Positions 50,830 through 60,166 of a DNA stretch of 64,000 bases are shown in pieces. The stretch is from assembly GCA_050253415.1 (NCBI GenBank), contig JBFWJC010000001.1:160001-224000 (forward strand). Direction: 5' to 3'. Source of the DNA: Pedobacter sp. (lineage in GTDB: Bacteria > Desulfobacterota > Desulfuromonadia > Desulfuromonadales > Syntrophotaleaceae). The notes beneath the pieces were generated by a model. It made no database searches, had not been told where the DNA came from, and was given only the letters and a program-made list of their open reading frames with translations. The position numbers and the translations under genes are program-made. Numbering within the stretch: the first letter of the stretch is position 1; each line of letters starts with the position of its first letter.

Positions 50830-53385
50830 CTACCACGGCTCCTGCAACGGTTGCTCGCCGTCCTGCAGATCCTGCGTCAGAAACGCGGTCAAGGCCTGCA
50901 TGACCTTCTCGGTGCGGCCCTTGGCCAGAGGTACATCGGGCAGGGAACGTAAAAAGATGCGTCCATAGCCCTTGTTGACCACTCGGCTGTCGAGAATCAG
51001 CACCACGCCCCGATCTTCGCGATGCCGGATCAGGCGACCGAACCCTTGCTTGAACTTGATGACGGCCTGCGGCACGGTGTATTGCATGAAAGGATCGCCC
51101 CCGGCCGCGGTTATCGCCTCGGCGCGAGCCTCCAGTACCGGTTCCGTGGGGACCTTGAACGGCAATCGGGTGATGATCACCTGCTCCAGAGCGCGTCCCG
51201 GCACATCGACCCCCTCCCAAAAGGAATCGGTAGCAAACAGCACGCTGGTCTCATCTTCGGCAAAAGTCTTTAGCAGTCGATGGCGATTGGCTTCGCCCTG
51301 GCGCAGGCAACGATAACCGCGTGCCTGCAGCACCGGCGACAGTTCGCCATGCACCTGGCGCAACAGTCCGTACGCGGTAAACAGGGCAAAGGTGCGACCA
51401 TCGGCCGCCACCACGGCGCGTTCTACCAGATCGCGAACCATGGCAGGATACCCTGCGCGTCCCGGTTCAGGCACATCGGTCGGCACCACCACCAACGCCT
51501 GACTTGCGAAATCGAACGGCGAATGGAGCAGCAATTCGCGCACCCGGTCCGCCTCGACCCGGTCAAGTCCCACGCGGCTTTTCAGATATTGAAACGAATC
51601 TCCAACCGCCAGCGTGGCGCTGGTCAGCACCACGCTGCGAAACCGGTCGTAAAGCCCTTCTTTAAGTTGGCCGGCGACCTCCAGGGGAGCCGTGCACAGG
51701 CGGGTTATCACTCCCCGTCCGCGACCTATGCGTCCCTCCACCACCTCGAACCAGGCGCAGGTGCGCTCGTCGCGAGCAATAAAAAACCTCAGGTCGCCGG
51801 CGATGCAGGCCAACCGGTCGGCAACCCCGCGAAGATCGGTCAGGGGCGAAACCAATTTGTCCGCCACCGCCTCCGGCAGCTTTTCGCTGGCTTTGAGCAG
51901 CGCTTCCAAGTCCTCTGCCAAGGTGGCACTGGCAGCTGCCAGATCCCGGATACGCTCAACGGCCGAGGGCCAGAATTCGCCGGCTGTCAGTTCCGGAACC
52001 ACCCTCCGACGCAACTCGTCCTGGCCGACACCGGTGCCGCAAGCTGCGGCCAGGTCCAGCCCTACCCCTTCGAGAGTCTGCAGAGCCTGATCGTAAAGTG
52101 CGTGACTGCCGGCCGACAAAGCCTCGATAGCTTCGTAATTGCTCCGATACAGAACATCCTCGGTATCCGGCAATTCCCGTGCCAGCAGATTGATGAAACG
52201 CGGCAGCAAACCCTTGTCCGGCTTGCGTGGGTGACGCAACTTGCCCAGTACCCGGGCAAACGCATAGCGCGTTACCTGCGAGGCGAAATAATGGGTGGCG
52301 ACGTCCTCGAGATGGTGTGCTTCATCGAGCACGATACGATCGAAGGGTGGCAAAACCGCGGCGGTACTATAATTGTCGGTCTGATGGCGCAAAGCCAGAT
52401 CCGACAACAACAGGGCGTGGTTGACCACCAGCAGATCGGCCTGCGCGGCTTGTCGACGGGCCTTATGGAAAAAACAGGCACCGTAATGATTGCACCGAAC
52501 CCGCGCACACTGATCGGCTTCGCAGCGCACCTCTTCCCACACCTCGAGGCGAGGCATAAAAGTCAACTCCTCGCGCGACCCTTCATGGGTAGCCGCCGCC
52601 CACTCCAGAACCGCAGCAAGTTCGCCACTTAATTCATCGTCGAACAACCCCGGTTCCAGACGTGCCGTCTCTGCCCGCCGTCGGCATAGATAGTTGTTGC
52701 GCCCCTTGACCAGTACCGCGCGAAATTCAAGGCCCGCAACCCGCTGCAGGAACGGCAGATCTTTACGAATCAGCTGTTCCTGCAGGTTGATGGTGTTGGT
52801 CGATACCACCACCCGCTCCTCGTTGGCCAATGCCCAGAGCAGCGCCGGTACCAGATAGGCCAGACTCTTGCCTGTACCAGTCCCTGCTTCGATGACCGCC
52901 AGTTGGCTGCGATTAAACGCCTCGCCAACCGCAAACGCCATGCGTAGCTGCTCGGGACGCTCTTCGTAGCCAGGAAGGGTTTTGGCCACCACTCCCAGGG
53001 GGCCCAGCAGGGCATCAATTTTCTCCGGTGGCAGATGTTGGGACTGACGGGGAGCAAAAGGTTCCACCACTTTATAAACATGTTCCACAGAGTTATCCAC
53101 AATCAGAAAACCAACCCCCTGGGAACCGAGTCGCGAAGCAATCTCAAGATCTGCCATCGATGGTTCCAGGCAAGCCGAAGGGTGATTGTGGAGAACGACA
53201 TCGCCATAGCGACATTCCTGCACAATGGCCGGCACCGCACTATCATTGCCACGTGCCAGCACCCGCACCTGAGTGATCCGCAGGTCACTGTCGGTGCTTC
53301 CGAGAAAAAAAACCTCCCGCCCACCAGCCTCAGTTATGGCTTGGCGCATACTGTCGATAACGGGCGTTGTGAAGGTCTTTTCCAT
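50830..53385 (-). CDS. DinG-family Fe-S helicase with N-terminal JAB/MPN domain
   Basis: EVFF...HNHPS...PS.AD JAB motif; EAGTGTGKS, Cys cluster, DEAH, SATL, FWEGVD, QGFGRLIR. Confidence 0.92.
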   Translation of the reverse strand: MEKTFTTPVIDSMRQAITEAGGREVFFLGSTDSDLRITQVRVLARGNDSAVPAIVQECRYGDVVLHNHPSACLEPSMADLEIASRLGSQGVGFLIVDNSVEHVYKVVEPFAPRQSQHLPPEKIDALLGPLGVVAKTLPGYEERPEQLRMAFAVGEAFNRSQLAVIEAGTGTGKSLAYLVPALLWALANEERVVVSTNTINLQEQLIRKDLPFLQRVAGLEFRAVLVKGRNNYLCRRRAETARLEPGLFDDELSGELAAVLEWAAATHEGSREELTFMPRLEVWEEVRCEADQCARVRCNHYGACFFHKARRQAAQADLLVVNHALLLSDLALRHQTDNYSTAAVLPPFDRIVLDEAHHLEDVATHYFASQVTRYAFARVLGKLRHPRKPDKGLLPRFINLLARELPDTEDVLYRSNYEAIEALSAGSHALYDQALQTLEGVGLDLAAACGTGVGQDELRRRVVPELTAGEFWPSAVERIRDLAAASATLAEDLEALLKASEKLPEAVADKLVSPLTDLRGVADRLACIAGDLRFFIARDERTCAWFEVVEGRIGRGRGVITRLCTAPLEVAGQLKEGLYDRFRSVVLTSATLAVGDSFQYLKSRVGLDRVEADRVRELLLHSPFDFASQALVVVPTDVPEPGRAGYPAMVRDLVERAVVAADGRTFALFTAYGLLRQVHGELSPVLQARGYRCLRQGEANRHRLLKTFAEDETSVLFATDSFWEGVDVPGRALEQVIITRLPFKVPTEPVLEARAEAITAAGGDPFMQYTVPQAVIKFKQGFGRLIRHREDRGVVLILDSRVVNKGYGRIFLRSLPDVPLAKGRTEKVMQALTAFLTQDLQDGEQPLQEPW

Positions 53386-53705
53386 ACCGTGCTCCCAGAA
53401 GACTGTCGAACTATTCGGTTGAAACGAAGAGTCGTACATCGCAGAACTGTTTTGGCTCCGAAGCAAAACACATCGCCGTAAAAGTGTGCCAAAAGAGTCC
53501 CTATGAACAAACATACTATTATAGGGAAGCACGTCTTAAAAGGAAAGGCTGACAAGGGGGGATAAGGGGGCAAAAAGGGATGGAGATTGACAGATCGCGC
53601 CGAAATGCTACATTGCTTAGACAACTTGCCGTGGCGAACGCTGCATGGCGTCACCGCTGACTCGGTTCCTGTCCAGACTTTCCAATTGAACACTAACGTA
53701 GGAGG

Positions 53706-54152
53706 ATGATCATGCTTCGAGGCTTGTGCGCGACCGATAACGATACTGGCAGCCTGATTTTACGGGTGATTTTGGGTGGGGTGTTTTTCCCCCATGGTGC
53801 ACAAAAAGCCCTGGCATGGTTCGGTGGCTACGGCCTGGCGCCGACTGTGGATTTTTTCAACCAGTCTTTTGGAGTGCCCGTACCGCTGGCCTACCTGGTC
53901 GTCGCGGCCGAGTTTCTCGGTGCCATAGCTCTGATCCTGGGTCTGCTGACACGTTTTGCAGCATTCGGTCTGTTTGCCGTCATGGCGGGCGCCATCTATC
54001 TGGTACACTGGCAGAACGGATTTTTCATGAACTGGGCAGGCAACCAGGCCGGCGAAGGCATCGAATACCATCTGCTGGTCATGGGCATAGCCCTGGCGCT
54101 GATGGTGCGGGGCGGCGGCCGCGCCTCCCTTGACCGGTTGCTGAGTCGTTGA
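53706..54152 (+). CDS. DoxX family membrane protein
   Basis: HGAQK..WFGG.G, AEF.G...LGLLTR, GFFMNW, EGIEY; GGAGG RBS. Confidence 0.92.
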   Translation: MIMLRGLCATDNDTGSLILRVILGGVFFPHGAQKALAWFGGYGLAPTVDFFNQSFGVPVPLAYLVVAAEFLGAIALILGLLTRFAAFGLFAVMAGAIYLVHWQNGFFMNWAGNQAGEGIEYHLLVMGIALALMVRGGGRASLDRLLSR

Positions 54153-54170
54153 TCCGCAGTACATGGTATG

Positions 54171-54209
54171 AAAAGCCCCGCATGCCTGTAAAGGCCGCGG
54201 GGCTTTTTT
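54171..54209 (+). terminator. Intrinsic terminator after doxX
   Basis: AAAAGCCCCGC...GCGGGGCTTTTTT. Confidence 0.8.
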
Positions 54210-54306
54210 GTGGATAATGGCCGGCTTGACTTGCCCCGTCCCCCCCCTTAAGATCAGAGATCGGAAGCCATCGCTTTTGCCACAGGTATCCCCAGAGGAA
54301 TGTACT

Positions 54307-54738
54307 ATGTACAGCAAACAAGTCATGGACCACTTCACCCGACCACGCAACGTCGGTTATCTTGAAAACCCCAGCGTGGCGGTTCAATATGGCGATCCCA
54401 CCTGCGGTGACTGTCTGTTGGTATTTTTGAAGATCGAGCAAGGCGTCATCCAAGACATGAAATACAAGGTAATGGGCTGCGCCGCCGCCATCGCAACCGC
54501 GTCCATCACCAGTGAAATGACTATCGGCCGCACCCTTGACGAGGCTATGGCATTGACCGAAAAACAGGTAGCTGAGGCCCTGGGCGGGCTTCCGCCGCAA
54601 AAGATGCACTGTTCCAACCTGGCGGTGGGCGCTCTTAAAGCGGCCCTGCGGGTGTATCTGGCAGGAGATCGCCCTCCCGATGCCATCGTCAGCGGGCGAG
54701 GGCACGACGCAAACCATCCTCCAGAGGAAAATCCTTGA
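54307..54738 (+). CDS. iscU: Stand-alone IscU/NifU-N type Fe-S scaffold
   Basis: YSKQVMDHF..PRNVG, PTCGD, GCAAA, LPPQKMHCSNL. Confidence 0.88.
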   Translation: MYSKQVMDHFTRPRNVGYLENPSVAVQYGDPTCGDCLLVFLKIEQGVIQDMKYKVMGCAAAIATASITSEMTIGRTLDEAMALTEKQVAEALGGLPPQKMHCSNLAVGALKAALRVYLAGDRPPDAIVSGRGHDANHPPEENP

Positions 54739-55582
54739 GACTGAAAAATGTTTGCCAGGGATGTGGGTCACAGACATTGCCGGCCAGCAACATCTGCAGC
54801 TGATCGACGGTCAGAGGACAACCCGGCACAGCCTGCAGGCTGGCCAGAAGCGGCTTTACCATCCAGATCGGCTGGTGAATCTTGACCACCTTGCGGCGGT
54901 GCAGTATGCCACCGATAATATCGAGAAGTTCATCGTAAGTTACGCTTTGCCCGCCGCAACAATGAAAGGTTTCACCAGCGGCATCGGAACGACCAAGGCA
55001 GGCAACGATACTGGCGGCAACCTCCTCCACGGCTACCGGCGCCAGGCGATAACGCCCATCGCCCAACACCGGCACCACTGGCAGAGTGCGCACCATTCCG
55101 GCCAGCAAGGTGCAGAAATTATCCTCGGCACCGTACATGACCGAGGGGCGGAAGATCGTCCAATCGAGAGTTGATTTTTTAACAAGCGCTTCCGCCTGTC
55201 CCTTGCTGCGATAATAGGCGGTACGGCCGTCGATACTGGCGCCGTTGCTGCTCATCAGTACAAAACGTCTGACCTTTTGAGCCTGTGCCGCGTCAACCAT
55301 GTGCGCCGTGGCCTGACGATGCAGACGGTCAAACGTAATTCCCTGTCGCGGATACTCGCGAATAATCCCTACCAGATGTACGACGGCCTCGCATCCAGCC
55401 AAGGCCCCCTGTAAGGTCTCCGGCTGAGTCACGTCCCCGAATCGCACCTCTGTTACCCCCGGCAGAAGTTTTCCCTCGGAGCCGGATCGCACCAGGCACA
55501 CCGGCGTATGCCTGGCGGCCAGCAATTGCCGGGTGACTTCGCGACCGACAAATCCGGTTGCGCCTGTAACAAATACCTGCAT
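54689..55582 (-). CDS. NDUFA9-like NAD(P)-binding SDR/epimerase
   Basis: VTGATGFVG, HLVGII, Y.RSK, FRPSVMYG. Confidence 0.88.
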   Translation of the reverse strand: MQVFVTGATGFVGREVTRQLLAARHTPVCLVRSGSEGKLLPGVTEVRFGDVTQPETLQGALAGCEAVVHLVGIIREYPRQGITFDRLHRQATAHMVDAAQAQKVRRFVLMSSNGASIDGRTAYYRSKGQAEALVKKSTLDWTIFRPSVMYGAEDNFCTLLAGMVRTLPVVPVLGDGRYRLAPVAVEEVAASIVACLGRSDAAGETFHCCGGQSVTYDELLDIIGGILHRRKVVKIHQPIWMVKPLLASLQAVPGCPLTVDQLQMLLAGNVCDPHPWQTFFSLKDFPLEDGLRRALAR

Positions 55583-55596
55583 GAGGTCCTCCGCGC

Positions 55597-57039
55597 TTAC
55601 CCCTTAACCACCGCCAGCGGTCGCAAGCGCGCAACGATGCGACCGATGCCGGCCTGTTGCACGACCTCCACCACCTCCGAAACATCCTTATACGCCTCCG
55701 AGATTTCCTCGGCCACGGTGCCACGCTCGGCAGCCCGCAGCACAATGCCCCGTGCAGCGAGTTCGGCCTCGATATTGCGACCACGGGCCACTTTTTTGGC
55801 CGCGTGGCGCGACAACACGCGGCCCGCACCGTGGCAGGTCGAACCGAAGGTCTGCTCGAACCCACCGGCGGTTCCCACCAGCACATAAGAATAGCGCCCC
55901 ATATCGCCGGGGATCAGCACCGGCTGACCTATGGCACGATAGCACGCCGGAACTTCGGGATGGCCGGGGGGAAACGCGCGCGTGGCACCCTTGCGGTGCA
56001 CACAGAGCCGACGCCGCACCCCTTGCACCACATGATTTTCCCATTTGGCAATATTGTGGCAGACGTCATAGATAAGCGAGAGTCGCAAGGCCTCGGCGCT
56101 TTGCCCCAACACCTGTTCAAACGATTCGCGCACCCAGGCGGTAATCAGTTGCCGGTTGGCAAACGCAAAATTGGCCGCGCAGGCCATGGCGGCAAGGTAC
56201 TGTCGACCCTCCGGGCTGCCAAGCGGTGCGCAGCACAACTGCCGGTCTGGCAGCGTGATGCCATATTTGGCCGCAGCCCGCAGCATGATCCGCAAATAAT
56301 CGTCGCACACCTGATAACCGAGGCCGCGGCTGCCGGTATGGATGGTCACCGTAACCTGTCCCGGGAATAATCCAAGCACCTGCGCGATTTCCGGTTCCCG
56401 AATCTCCTCCACCATCTGCACTTCCAGAAAGTGGTTGCCTGAGCCAAGAGTCCCGAGCTGGTCGCGCCCCCGTTCCAGAGCGCGATCGGAAAGCAGTTCC
56501 GGGTCGGCGCCTTCGATACGCCCCTCAGCCTCGATATGCTGCAGATCCTGCTCGCTGCCCATCCCGCGATTCACCACCCAGCGGGCCCCCTGCTGCAGAA
56601 CCTTGCGCTCTTCCGCAACACTCAATTTAAGATCGCGTCGATGAGAACCGACCCCGGAAGGTACATTGCGAAACAGAGCATCGGCCAACCTCTGCAAGTG
56701 GGGACGAACCTGCTGCACTTCCAGATCGGAGCGCAGCAGACGCACTCCACAGTTGATATCGTAGCCGACCCCCCCGGGTGAGACGACCCCCTCCTCGGCA
56801 TCAAAGGCCGCCACCCCGCCGATAGGAAAACCATAGCCCCAATGAATGTCCGGCATGGCCAGAGACGGACCGACAATACCGGGCAAAGTCGCGACATTGC
56901 GCACCTGTTCGAGAGCCTGCTCTTTCTGCAATGCCGCCATCATGGCGCGGCTGGCAAAAACCAGGCCGTCGGTACGCATAGCCCCTTCGCGAGGGATGCG
57001 CCAGCGGCATTGATCGATCTGTTGCACTTTGACGGTCAT
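55597..57039 (-). CDS. rtcB: RNA-splicing/repair ligase RtcB (archaeal/eukaryote-like clade)
   Basis: MPDIHWGYGFPIGGV, GYDINCG, GSGNHF, HTGSRG, HRKGATR, STCHGAGR, EE.SEAYK, VKG C-terminus. Confidence 0.96.
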   Translation of the reverse strand: MTVKVQQIDQCRWRIPREGAMRTDGLVFASRAMMAALQKEQALEQVRNVATLPGIVGPSLAMPDIHWGYGFPIGGVAAFDAEEGVVSPGGVGYDINCGVRLLRSDLEVQQVRPHLQRLADALFRNVPSGVGSHRRDLKLSVAEERKVLQQGARWVVNRGMGSEQDLQHIEAEGRIEGADPELLSDRALERGRDQLGTLGSGNHFLEVQMVEEIREPEIAQVLGLFPGQVTVTIHTGSRGLGYQVCDDYLRIMLRAAAKYGITLPDRQLCCAPLGSPEGRQYLAAMACAANFAFANRQLITAWVRESFEQVLGQSAEALRLSLIYDVCHNIAKWENHVVQGVRRRLCVHRKGATRAFPPGHPEVPACYRAIGQPVLIPGDMGRYSYVLVGTAGGFEQTFGSTCHGAGRVLSRHAAKKVARGRNIEAELAARGIVLRAAERGTVAEEISEAYKDVSEVVEVVQQAGIGRIVARLRPLAVVKG

Positions 57040-57103
57040 AACATCTACCTTTCATGGCCCCGTTACCATAAAGCGTCCCTGTGACCTGTACCGTTTTTCG
57101 TGT

Positions 57104-57241
57104 CTAGTAATTCAGGGCCATTATCCGGGCTGACAAGGCTACGTCAACCTGGCATAACCGAGTGGTACGTTAAATGGTGGAACGCTGAAATCGCCAGAAA
57201 AGCCGGAAGAAGACATCTGAAATAATGGCATAGATCACTAG
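57104..57241. mobile_element. Putative MITE-like insertion (138 bp) bounded by CTAG and imperfect terminal inverted repeats
   Basis: Left end CTAGTAATTCAGGGCCATTAT; right end ATAATGGCATAGATCACTAG (revcomp CTAGTGATCTATGCCATTAT). Confidence 0.5.
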
Positions 57242-57717
57242 AGATCAAGATAAACCCGCGCACGCCAGAGGCCCTGGCGACAGCTGACCATAAGATGGTG
57301 GTAGGTGGCTGCTTTGATTTCCCTTTGAGGGTCTCCGGTCAGCGGCACCACCGCCAACCTGGCCTCAAGCGAGCCGGGTTTCATATCTGTCAAGGTGATA
57401 TCTTGCGGCCACATGCCCTTGGTCTGAATCAGATAAAGCAACTCGTTAAGCCACACGACCAGCAGTTCCTCCACATCGCCTGCGGCAACCTCAAGCGTTA
57501 AAACGCGAATCGGGGTCATACTATCAGCGCTGCCAGCCAACACCGCCAACAACCCTTTTGCCGCCTGCACAAACAACTCCTCACAGCTTGCAGCCTGGGC
57601 TTCGATACCCATATCGGCGGTGTGCTCCAAAAGCCGAAAGGCGGCCGCGCCGCCTTTCTTTTTAACCGGCTTGGATCCCGCCTCTGGAAATTGTCGGGCA
57701 TTTTGGTCCGCATTCAT
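57238..57717 (-). CDS. Archease (RtcB activator)
   Basis: LEHTADMG, WLNELLY, EIKAATYH, C-terminal YLDL. Confidence 0.93.
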   Translation of the reverse strand: MNADQNARQFPEAGSKPVKKKGGAAAFRLLEHTADMGIEAQAASCEELFVQAAKGLLAVLAGSADSMTPIRVLTLEVAAGDVEELLVVWLNELLYLIQTKGMWPQDITLTDMKPGSLEARLAVVPLTGDPQREIKAATYHHLMVSCRQGLWRARVYLDL

Positions 57718-57721
57718 AGAG

Positions 57722-58240
57722 TCATTCTTCGCGCTGCCAAGTGACGCGGCAGATGGCATGATCATCCGTCCAGACCACCTTAAGCTCGCCTTGGTGGGAC
57801 TTATGGAGGGCGCGGCCGAGGTGTTCGGCGAGTTTTTCTTCGGTCGTTTCGATCACCAGATCCTGGCCTTCTCGCTCCATTCGGATAATCTGTTCCAGCG
57901 GATTTTTGGCCCTGGCCTTGGTCACCTCATTCCTTAGAATGTTACGGATTTCCTCTTCGTGCGCCCACAGATAGGCGCCACGCAGGGTTACATAGCCTTC
58001 TGCGTAACCATCCTCGATCTTACGGCAACCCGGGCAAAGTTGTCTGGTAACCTTCACATCATCGGAAAGATGCTTAAACGCCTCCACATCGAGGTACCAG
58101 CGCTTGTTACGATAAACCGCCTGGCAACCGGTGCAGATCGTAGGTTCCGGCAGCCCCTGATCCATAATATAGGGATCAGAGCTGGTTTTGCAGCGTCCAC
58201 GTTTGTCACTGATGCCGAACTTTCCGCTCTCTTTTTGCAT
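57722..58240 (-). CDS. BCAM0308-family protein (two CxxC motifs)
   Basis: DPY...EPTICTGC.AVY..KRW, LCPGCRKI.D...G.VTL.G, NPLEQI, TT.EKLA.HLGRAL.K..QG.L, RVTW.R. Confidence 0.8.
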   Translation of the reverse strand: MQKESGKFGISDKRGRCKTSSDPYIMDQGLPEPTICTGCQAVYRNKRWYLDVEAFKHLSDDVKVTRQLCPGCRKIEDGYAEGYVTLRGAYLWAHEEEIRNILRNEVTKARAKNPLEQIIRMEREGQDLVIETTEEKLAEHLGRALHKSHQGELKVVWTDDHAICRVTWQREE

Positions 58241-58286
58241 ACTTGAACCCCTTTCCCGAGGAATTTTTAGGGCCTTCCTACTATTG

Positions 58287-58295
58287 ATTATAGCA
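58287..58295 (-). promoter_or_regulatory. Extended -10 promoter for BCAM0308-archease-rtcB
   Basis: - strand TGCTATAAT, about 47 bp upstream of ATG 58240. Confidence 0.6.
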
Positions 58296-58428
58296 TCAGG
58301 AATGGTATTTGGGGGGGACCGAAGGTGACGGAATGGTTTGCAGGAGTAATTTGTAAGAAGTTGAAGGGGGGTTACAAAACCCGATAGTTGTCAGCTGAGA
58401 ACCTTGCAGTCATAATCATGCATGCATA

Positions 58429-58800
58429 TCACCATGACAGGCTACGGGACACCGTAGTCCACAGCAGATTGGCAACAACCACAGAAAGTCCCGCGGCCAG
58501 AGCCAGAGGCGGGGCTTTAAGGGGTCCGATCAGCACAAAAATGGCCCCGGCCAAACACAATAGTCTGACCAGCGTACCACCTTGAAAGGCCAATCCTGAT
58601 TTTTGACCCGGAGTCAAAAGTAACCGTTTGAGGGAACGATGCAACGCATGGAAACTGGCGATGACCACCAATCCACCCCCCAGCACTCCCACTGTAACCG
58701 GAAGCGATTTCCAAAGCAGACTACCCAAGACCATCACACACAGAATCAACCAGTTGCGCCGAGCCATTTCCCGTATCAGCTGGTCATCCCCTGTCGTCAT
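58429..58800 (-). CDS. atpI: ATP synthase protein I (4-TM AtpI)
   Basis: Four hydrophobic helices, GVLGGG, LAAGLSVVV; overlaps atpZ. Confidence 0.75.
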   Translation of the reverse strand: MTTGDDQLIREMARRNWLILCVMVLGSLLWKSLPVTVGVLGGGLVVIASFHALHRSLKRLLLTPGQKSGLAFQGGTLVRLLCLAGAIFVLIGPLKAPPLALAAGLSVVVANLLWTTVSRSLSW

Positions 58801-59032
58801 GCTCTTCCTCCCCCTGGCGGCGCAATTCGCGGCGGGTAAGGATAAAAATATTGCGGAATCCGGCGGCAATTCCGAAGCCGAGGAACAACAGCGTCAGCCA
58901 GGGAGAAGTCCCCAGCCAACGATCGAGATAGTACCCCATAAACAACCCGATAAGGGTCGAAGCCACCAGAGAAATACCGACTCCGGAAAGAAAACCGATG
59001 GATTTGATCAGTTGTTGTCTGTTTTCCGCCAT
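58784..59032 (-). CDS. atpZ: AtpZ/AtpI-family (ATPase_gene1) protein
   Basis: G...GYYLDRWLGTSPW....L.FGIAAGF.N motif. Confidence 0.88.
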   Translation of the reverse strand: MAENRQQLIKSIGFLSGVGISLVASTLIGLFMGYYLDRWLGTSPWLTLLFLGFGIAAGFRNIFILTRRELRRQGEEEHDDRG

Positions 59033-59200
59033 AGTTACCAAAATCCAAGAGACAAGGACGTCGTCCGAATATCTGCTTCCCCCGCAGCCCTTATCTCAAA
59101 AACCCGCCGGGTACGCATTCGAATGATCTATTCAAACCCGTATAACCGAGAGCGTGCTAACGGAAGTTAAAAGGTTTTCTCCCCCAAGAAAATCGTCAAG

Positions 59201-60166
59201 TCATCCCTTAAATAAACGGATAAAATGGGCAAAAATCCCTTGATCGTCATCGGCCACTTCCTGCTCTTTCATAATCTTAAGGGCTTCAAAGGTCGTGCGT
59301 CTTTGATGATAGGGGCGCTCGGCAGTGAGTGCTTCATAAATATCGGCAATACGGCAAATCCGCGCATAAGGATGGATATCCGATCCCATCTTCCCGTGTG
59401 GATAGCCGGTACCATTGTCGCGTTCATGATGCTGCAGAGTAATGGTAAGCGCTTCATCGGTAATGATCCCGTTTTCACTGAGGATGTTGTAACCTTCCTC
59501 AACATGACCATTGACCACCTGGCGTTCTTCCGGCGTCAATTGTCCCGGCTTGTTGATAATCTCAATGGGAATGCGACACTTGCCAAGATCGTGCAGAAAA
59601 AAACCGGTGCCAAGGTTATGCATATCGTGCGAGCGATCCTGGCCGAATAATAATCGCGCCAGTGCCACGCCGAAAATACCGACATTGGTAGAATGAACGT
59701 AGGTGGCATGATCGAAAGCAGTCAATCGTACCAGATATTTGGTTGCTTCTTCATTGTTTACGATGAGATCGACCGTCGGAACGATAACATCGCAGGCCTG
59801 CTTGATAAAGGGACCGCGAGGGTCATCAAAGGCCCGACGCATGACATCGCGACAGGCCGCCTGCACGGCTTTGGCTTTGACAGAAGCCTCAACATTCGGA
59901 TTATGAACAAGGTCGTCCAGCCTGGAGCGTAACATCTGGCTGTAAAAAGCTGCATCCTCGACGCGTACATACAGGTGTTCGGTACCATAAAACTGCAGAC
60001 GATCGATAGCAGGACGGCCTAAAATACCATGTTGAGCGACAAACAGAACGTACTCACCACTCCGGTTACATCGAAACAAATCACACGGAGCTTTTTGGAT
60101 AAAATGAAGGGAGTCGGTACTTACGGAAAATAACTCCTCGCCGCTGATATTTTCGGCCAGATCCAT
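59201..60166 (-). CDS. HD-GYP domain c-di-GMP phosphodiesterase
   Basis: TYVHS, LHDLGK, HHERDNGTGYP, ADIYEALT..RPY. Confidence 0.92.
   Translation of the reverse strand: MDLAENISGEELFSVSTDSLHFIQKAPCDLFRCNRSGEYVLFVAQHGILGRPAIDRLQFYGTEHLYVRVEDAAFYSQMLRSRLDDLVHNPNVEASVKAKAVQAACRDVMRRAFDDPRGPFIKQACDVIVPTVDLIVNNEEATKYLVRLTAFDHATYVHSTNVGIFGVALARLLFGQDRSHDMHNLGTGFFLHDLGKCRIPIEIINKPGQLTPEERQVVNGHVEEGYNILSENGIITDEALTITLQHHERDNGTGYPHGKMGSDIHPYARICRIADIYEALTAERPYHQRRTTFEALKIMKEQEVADDDQGIFAHFIRLFKG

Follow-up and report, generated by a model that had tools for sequence, protein, structure and literature searches.

RNA repair operons built around RtcB

The RNA ligase RtcB joins RNA ends bearing a 2′,3′-cyclic phosphate or a 3′-phosphate to ends bearing a 5′-OH, and its guanylylation is promoted by archease. 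To our knowledge, the targets of the bacterial archease-type enzyme in the cell, and the manner in which its substrates are found, remain largely open. The 64,000-nucleotide stretch of contig JBFWJC010000001.1 analysed here (‘the window’) carries rtcB as the third member of a block of four genes—a gene of the BCAM0308 family, archease, rtcB and an atypical short-chain dehydrogenase/reductase (SDR) resembling NDUFA9—that recurs across one bacterial order, and which we regard as a probable operon specific to that order whose first gene encodes a ‘mini-NMD3’. The genome is Desulfuromonadales-like, judged from the names on close homologues, and 100% complete by its marker genes; all features of the block lie on the minus strand and are given in window positions.

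The archease–RtcB core of the block is already known. An operon of the two genes has been published, with Pelobacter propionicus and Syntrophus aciditrophicus included in figure 1B (Desai et al. 2014, PMC3973293); as far as the accessible part of that paper goes, the operons of Pyrococcus horikoshii and Thermus thermophilus share with our locus an archease gene directly upstream of an archaeal-type rtcB, in a unit with neither rtcA nor rtcR. What sets the window apart from the operon as it appears in that part of the paper is the gene for an NMD3-like zinc protein before the pair and that for an NDUFA9-like SDR after it, both order-wide. A second parallel is the ribosome-repair pair RtcB2–PrfH of E. 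coli, in which RtcB is again encoded next to a small protein that descends from a translation or ribosome factor and could guide it to damaged ribosomes; in the portions of the two reports available (PMC9223846, PMC13166195), however, the ligase is of another subtype, the partner is a release-factor homologue and archease is not involved, and the function there has been shown experimentally, whereas the block in the window is known from its genes and a predicted fold.

The enterobacterial rtcBA operon (PMC7790460) is likewise an RtcB-centred RNA repair operon, but one under RtcR and sigma54, where the genome of the window has archease, a conserved extended −10 element, an unlinked rtcA and no RtcR. 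From metazoans, the accessible text of PMC12263435 describes PYROXD1, an NAD(P)-dependent oxidoreductase genetically tied to RTCB; PYROXD1 is a flavoprotein rather than an SDR, so that the parallel is one of idea only. In the literature searched, which did not extend to the principal survey of the genes around RtcB (Burroughs & Aravind 2016), we found nothing that joins BCAM0308 or NMD3-like proteins with RtcB.

The order of elements given in a first-pass annotation of this DNA is borne out. An extended −10 promoter element, TGCTATAAT (58295–58287, as read from the sequence), lies 55 nt before the ATG of the BCAM0308-family gene at 58240 (58240–57722; 172 amino acids, aa); archease follows from an ATG at 57717, 4 nt past the BCAM0308 stop (57717–57238, 159 aa; the longest open reading frame, ORF, starts at 57765); beyond a spacer of 198 nt (57237–57040) comes rtcB (57039–55597, 480 aa) and then, starting 14 nt past its stop, the SDR gene (55582–54689, 297 aa), the 3′ end of which overlaps a convergent nifU-like gene. 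RtcB, BCAM0308 and archease are each present in single copy genome-wide.

The gene block across the order

The linkage was counted in two samples: 401 genomes of the phylum, 116 with a BCAM0308 match and 356 with RtcB, and 151 genomes of the order, 92 with BCAM0308. Besides the window’s own genome the order sample thus offers 91 carriers, and RtcB was looked up in 80 of these, the other 11 being G196 and G333 (already found linked), three with broken matches and six that are less than 80% complete. In 58 of the 80, rtcB follows BCAM0308 on the same strand at a distance of 571–842 bp; RtcB is elsewhere in 16 and missing from six. With the window genome, G196 and G333 included, the linkage amounts to 61 of 83 BCAM0308-carrying genomes and 21 GTDB family codes. 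BCAM0308 heads the block throughout the order and is no chance neighbour. Within the phylum sample the adjacency was met only in those same three genomes, all of one GTDB order. RtcB positions are listed only in part for G049 and G122, and the census as a whole spans one phylum together with 14 proteobacterial plasmid or chromid records, three of them inspected; a search for related loci with the single protein yielded six.

We compared gene order in 26 linked loci drawn from across the order (27 with the window, for the tree and the promoter motif). Archease and rtcB follow BCAM0308 in all 26, and the SDR gene comes after rtcB in 24, being missing in L055, while the contig of L060 ends just past rtcB. 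Within the block the gaps are short: that ahead of archease measures −37 to +245 nt, that ahead of rtcB 8–178 nt and that ahead of the SDR gene 13–212 nt. The window’s upstream genes (atpI, atpZ, HD-GYP, aminotransferase) recur only in three loci of the same genus, as does the downstream nifU, and doxX is found in four loci. Tables of neighbouring genes are approximate, as greedy ORF calling went wrong in places (in L004, for instance, it gave an ORF antisense to rtcB). The four-gene block is kept while its flanks change, and because the flanks have turned over whilst the block was retained through the depth of the order, we see selection acting upon it.

A tree of 64 BCAM0308 proteins places all 27 linked members, along with the secondarily unlinked L048, in a single clade (SH-aLRT 99) whose sister group consists of unlinked proteins from the same class; this indicates one origin of the linkage, followed by vertical descent and one secondary loss. 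Of 20 rtcB loci taken from the phylum’s other families, eight have archease upstream and none has BCAM0308 or the SDR gene adjacent; since neither adjoins rtcB in these outside loci, we regard them as order-specific additions to the known archease–rtcB pair.

Some loci depart from the pattern in detail. In two genomes of the order the rtcB adjoining BCAM0308 is matched in several pieces (G470:C13:48574-50934 and G462:C8:39039-41459), for which frameshifts, an insertion or an intein are possible; the BCAM0308 match of G470 lies inside a 712-aa open frame, and that of L023 in a frame of 1135 aa without a Pfam domain, the latter probably an artefact of start choice. Beyond the block, a DinG-type helicase (Helicase_C_2, DEAD) is encoded at 50830–53532 on the minus strand of the window; its N-terminus matches a RadC-like JAB domain narrowly above the cut-off (22.3 bits). 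In L050, L052, L062 and L069 too, a homologue is encoded on the strand of BCAM0308, 3.6–4.9 kb downstream of it, making the helicase a loose recurrent neighbour.

The linked loci share one element upstream. In 27 of 27, BCAM0308 is preceded by TGNTATA[AC]T, most often as GGTGCTATACTG; the position is −42 to −82 in 26 loci and −142 in L062, for which the start codon is uncertain. It occurs 29 times in 664,208 bases of the linked loci (both strands) and a single time on either strand of the 64-kb window; given this rarity, its presence in every locus is beyond chance, and the TGCTATAAT-type box is the one conserved cis-element of the block, placed before BCAM0308. A consensus scan scored no −35 hexamer for it. 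The first-pass reading of control independent of RtcR and sigma54 is supported, as RtcR was not found in the complete genome, no sigma54-type match lies in 58241–58430 and the extended −10 box is conserved; that a constitutive-looking box stands in place of RtcR/sigma54 control we consider solid. Transcription would most likely start at this sigma70-type promoter before the first gene. The first transcribed bases upstream of BCAM0308 are similar (TATACTGAAAC(C)AGGAG-like) in L005, L050, L051, L054, L056, L061 and L065, which come from several families of the order and not from the window’s genus, and hint at a conserved 5′ leader past the box. No RNA data set for this DNA was listed; three metagenomic runs of one study contain 5–6% of the sampled words, in contigs of 151–470 nt at 90–99% identity, none of which spans a gene junction, so that they speak neither for nor against co-transcription.

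The 198-nt spacer between archease and rtcB, which went unmentioned in the first-pass annotation, is not conserved, given its length of 8–178 nt in 25 relatives. It holds a sigma70-like TTGACG-16-GATAAT at 57147–57120, by its sequence a possible internal promoter. A structured RNA in the spacer was considered and rejected (no Rfam match, fold z 0.03, variable length).

Other parts known from RtcB systems had been reported absent. A genome-wide look for RtcR and for a TROVE/Ro protein found neither, positions 54000–59500 gave no match to Y RNA or any other Rfam family, and the sigma54 box is missing upstream. An rtcA gene does exist, on another contig. The block has no release-factor-like ORF, prfH not having been searched for genome-wide, and the 64-kb window holds no tRNA. 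This rtcA, the only one in the genome (contig C2; L093 4938–7637, minus strand), is immediately preceded, in the same orientation, by efp and a gene for an EpmA-like paralogue of lysyl-tRNA synthetase (tRNA-synt_2, 303 aa), which suggests an efp–epmA–rtcA cluster.

The NMD3-like fold of BCAM0308 and the enzymes that follow

The window’s BCAM0308 protein matches NF040826 with 149.5 bits (E 5.4e-44; cut-off 100) over profile positions 9–153 of 153, and the Pfam family NMD3 (PF04981) with 37.7 bits (cut-off 24.9), over profile positions 126–218 of 243 only. Two CxxC pairs, C36/C39 and C69/C72, are present; among 76 family representatives, which share an N-terminal DPY motif, a CxxC...W...CPxC stretch and a C-terminal domain, C36, C39, W48 and C69 are invariant and C72 nearly so. 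In the AlphaFold model (pLDDT 91.7, pTM 0.84), confident except for the first ~20 residues, a disordered N-terminus leads into one Cys4 zinc site and a C-terminal eL22-like alpha/beta domain.

Foldseek, given this model, returned yeast Nmd3 first (5t62_V, E 8.9e-4) and eL22 ribosomal proteins as well, whilst a second, Foldseek-independent search (VIA) gave yeast Nmd3 as its top three matches (Z 10.5, 9.3 and 9.2), followed by a designed protein (Z 8.1) and then the next natural protein (Z 7.0). The superposition places model residues 80–172 on Nmd3 155–250, with an rmsd of 2.3–2.5 Å over 84 residues (2.3 Å for the Z 10.5 match). The first-pass annotation had proposed a comparison of folds with NMD3 in mind, and an NMD3-like fold is what we find. 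The match covers the eL22-like part, the zinc part having no separate match. When the family alignment was run as a sequence profile against solved structures, nothing reached significance (a designed repeat protein came closest, E 0.0029), so that kinship with NMD3 is recovered by Pfam and fold only.

The matched part of Nmd3 appears, in the portion of Zhou et al. 2019 (PMC6393466) available, as the ‘eL22-like domain of Nmd3 in the P site’, joined to a treble-clef zinc centre; the P site in question is that of the large ribosomal subunit. Eukaryotic and archaeal NMD3, a 60S export adaptor and assembly factor (5h4p, 5t62; PMC6393466), thus resembles the window protein in setting a Cys4 zinc site before the alpha/beta domain at Nmd3 155–250, as far as that portion describes it. 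It differs in size (~500 residues in yeast against 172), in its two zinc centres against one, and in its further domains, called eIF5A-mimicking in the title of PDB 5t62, of which the bacterial protein has none. With 172 residues and one Cys4 site BCAM0308 falls short of the full NMD3 architecture; as modelled, it is a one-zinc, one-domain relative of the NMD3 core and not an NMD3 orthologue. Public annotation is already loosely NMD-like, JGI naming it an ‘NMD protein affecting ribosome stability and mRNA decay’ and UniRef an ‘Nmd3 N-terminal domain-containing protein’. The family comprises 967 clusters at 50% identity (E up to 0.001).

Archease matches PF01951 with 108.6 bits over profile positions 1–136, and its EHTAD motif and C-terminal aspartate are conserved: H32, T33, A34, D35 and D158 are invariant in 26 sequences and E31 is nearly so. 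The conserved acidic residues at the tip include probable metal ligands. The basic N-terminal extension remarked on in the first-pass annotation is there, with ~26 residues before the Pfam domain, as a feature of the genus: in the alignment with 25 relatives it is common to three of the same genus, six more carry extensions of unrelated sequence, and in the remaining 16 the N-terminus is longer by no more than two residues (with start codons of our choosing); conservation beyond the genus is rejected. Inside this genus-specific extension, just past the BCAM0308 stop, a terminator scan flagged on the plus strand a perfect GC-rich hairpin with a 10-bp stem and 3-nt loop (GAAAGGCGGC-GCG-GCCGCCTTTC, 57636–57658), which could modulate the coupling of BCAM0308 and archease.

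RtcB has as its closest solved chains TTHA1785 of T. thermophilus (E 5.6e-189) and the P. horikoshii enzyme (E 1.1e-180). The full-length domain match (PF01139, 596.5 bits) and the archease gene upstream mark it as the archaeal/Thermus, archease-using type, and its score against TIGR03073, the PrfH-linked type, is far under the cut-off (149.8 bits against 271.8). D94, C97, H203, H234, H328 and H403 are invariant in 27 orthologues; by comparison with the P. horikoshii enzyme, these would be the metal-binding Asp/Cys/His residues and the guanylylated His. Judged by its sequence, the core is on solid ground as an ordinary archease-activated RtcB ligase.

RtcB genes elsewhere add a side observation on one of these residues. 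A single in-frame TGA interrupts the RtcB match in 30 of 150 listed rows of the phylum sample and in four of 81 in a second listing; in all seven sequences fetched (L095–L101, respectively G092, G352, G186, G001, G165, G199 and G399) the TGA aligns with Cys97 of the window RtcB (codon 56749–56751), in the motif VGYDIN-C-GVRL. The counterpart in P. horikoshii RtcB, Cys98, is the active-site cysteine (PMC4150793), and from this alignment the TGA-bearing genes probably encode natural selenocysteine RtcBs; in the literature we found no natural selenocysteine RtcB, the engineered Sec98 enzyme being the only case met.

The SDR (NAD_binding_10, 96.1 bits) retains a glycine-rich TGATGFVG and a YYRSK of the YxxxK type. 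Its top solved match is an ‘NAD-dependent epimerase/dehydratase’ chain (9g83_P, E 3.2e-23), with chains of NDUFA9, the 39-kDa complex I subunit, at E 2e-20 and weaker; the likeness to NDUFA9 does not imply a role in complex I.

What the block may do

We favour the following account. In an ancestor of the order, an existing ribosome- or rRNA-binding stress protein would have moved ahead of archease–rtcB and then been kept; BCAM0308, archease and rtcB would be co-transcribed, and BCAM0308 would bind the ribosome and act on ligation, either by guiding the ligase to broken RNA of the translation machinery or by stabilising that machinery during mending. To this preferred reading—a mini-NMD3 that guides RtcB to ribosomal RNA, or that holds the translation machinery steady during repair, drawn by analogy with PrfH and RtcB2—we assign a probability of roughly 0.45. 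A more elaborate form, in which BCAM0308 would dock as a bacterial mini-NMD3 on the interface/P-site side of the 50S subunit and, in Desulfuromonadales, recruit archease-activated RtcB to reseal cleaved 23S rRNA or ribosome-bound tRNA, with the SDR keeping the oxidation-prone active-site Cys of RtcB functional, is unlikely; it would make the block a large-subunit counterpart of PrfH–RtcB2. A complex prediction for RtcB and archease with BCAM0308 as partner scored 0.00, which counts neither for nor against.

Several observations weigh against the guide or stabiliser reading. As the linkage is one evolutionary event, the 61 linked genomes are not independent; the whole case rests on that event, and the partnership of BCAM0308 with RtcB, as seen from gene order, is that of a candidate. 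None of the 113 BCAM0308 carriers outside the order in the phylum sample is linked: five have no RtcB match and 108 have RtcB on another contig or far off, the nearest being G068, with RtcB 4.4 kb away on the opposite strand. Within the order itself, 16 of 80 genomes keep the two genes apart, and outside it the 20 rtcB loci have neither accessory gene adjacent. A near-neutral protein (median isoelectric point, pI, 6.5 in the linked clade, against 9.0 for the family representatives) is not what one would expect of a plain RNA binder. The first-pass annotation thus stands in part: its genes, its view of control, the order-wide first gene and the NMD3-like fold hold, and the archease extension proves to be a matter of the genus. 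Its wider proposal, that the BCAM0308 family as a whole is a component of RtcB systems, fails on the contrast between 61 of 83 carriers within the order and 0 of 113 elsewhere in the phylum; the linkage is order-wide, of single origin and confined to the order, which comes near to the linkage among close relatives that the annotation had itself held against its idea.

What surrounds BCAM0308 elsewhere bears on the same question. Among 37 unlinked family members in the phylum the neighbours are heterogeneous, and the RNA theme that can be drawn from them is our own selection: a TlyA-like FtsJ+S4 methyltransferase (L018 and L019; the same gene cluster in L021), RuvX, RNase R, pseudouridine synthase, RNase H and CCA/polyA polymerase; HPF fused to a cold-shock domain (CSD) near BCAM0308 in L015, beside HrpA and DksA; and Usp proteins in L024 and L025. 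In two of 38 unlinked loci (L027, L036) rtcA lies 1.3–2 kb downstream, which, like the rRNA, tRNA and ribosome genes among the neighbours, speaks for the preferred reading. These two loci belong with L032, L037 and L038 to one clade in which BCAM0308 sits between AIR-synthase-like and radical-SAM genes, beside class V FBPase. In the proteobacterial records (three of 14 inspected) BCAM0308 stands beside Hsp20, Usp, BON, FtsH, class II RNR, PFK and PpsA, with no RtcB; such stress-type neighbours agree with the place of the name-giving gene in the low-oxygen-activated lxa locus of Burkholderia cenocepacia, as given in the accessible parts of PMC3721108 and PMC4981469. The B. cenocepacia protein belongs to the same NCBIfam family, NF040826, with ~31–32% identity to that of the window; its gene differs in lying in a hypoxia island between a BON-domain gene and ftsH, without RtcB. 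Outside the order, then, BCAM0308 occurs either within islands of stress or dormancy genes or next to a mixture of genes concerned with RNA and ribosomes.

These surroundings lend themselves to an account in which BCAM0308 would be co-expressed with its neighbours yet independent of them: a general stress or dormancy factor, such as a ribosome binder or silencer, that shares the promoter, being needed under the same conditions as archease–rtcB, and neither contacts RtcB nor affects ligation. A family found in 116 of 401 phylum genomes, with linkage in only three, and a name-giving member switched on by low oxygen are what this account would lead one to expect. The block, however, has persisted to the depth of the order amid changing flanks, where co-regulation by itself would demand no such persistence, and its sole conserved promoter box stands before BCAM0308 itself; we consider such independence possible, if doubtful.

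The two accessory genes could instead assist RtcB with metal or redox: its oxidation-sensitive Cys/Mn site would be supplied with metal, or shielded, by the Cys4 protein together with the NAD(P)-binding SDR, in the way that PYROXD1 serves human RTCB or that has been proposed for COG0523 GTPases in other rtcB operons. Both joined archease–rtcB in the same lineage (the SDR in 24 of 26 linked loci, against 0 of 20 outside rtcB loci), the SDR retains its glycine-rich and YxxxK motifs, and the TGA codon for the equivalent cysteine in seven of seven relatives examined points to the redox importance of that residue; PYROXD1, in the accessible part of PMC12263435, protects the RTCB active-site Cys in an NAD(P)H-dependent manner. 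Yet PYROXD1 is unrelated to SDRs, and the zinc site of BCAM0308 sits in an NMD3-homologous fold, where such sites are structural treble clefs, and not in that of any known metallochaperone, so that we judge this quite unlikely. Neutral hitch-hiking—a chance rearrangement upstream of archease–rtcB that persists because a break in the operon would part rtcB from its promoter—would suit a linkage that has a single origin and is dispensable (the genes being apart in 16 of 80 order genomes, and BCAM0308 present without any RtcB in six), but it is improbable, since 67% mean column identity and 35 invariant columns place BCAM0308 of the linked clade under purifying selection and the genes to either side of the block have not kept their order.

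Returning to the guide or stabiliser reading, its interest lies in how RtcB may find its substrates. Targeting has been worked out in a single case, that of RtcB2, whose partner PrfH is homologous to a translation factor, and an order-wide operon that sets a homologue of the ribosome-binding core of NMD3 before archease–rtcB offers a concrete hypothesis of the same kind. What is new, as the models have it, is possibly a lineage-specific mini-NMD3 accessory, with the SDR, directed to the ribosome. For the BCAM0308 family, which is widespread, uncharacterised in the literature searched and induced by low oxygen in Burkholderia, the block may provide a first functional handle.

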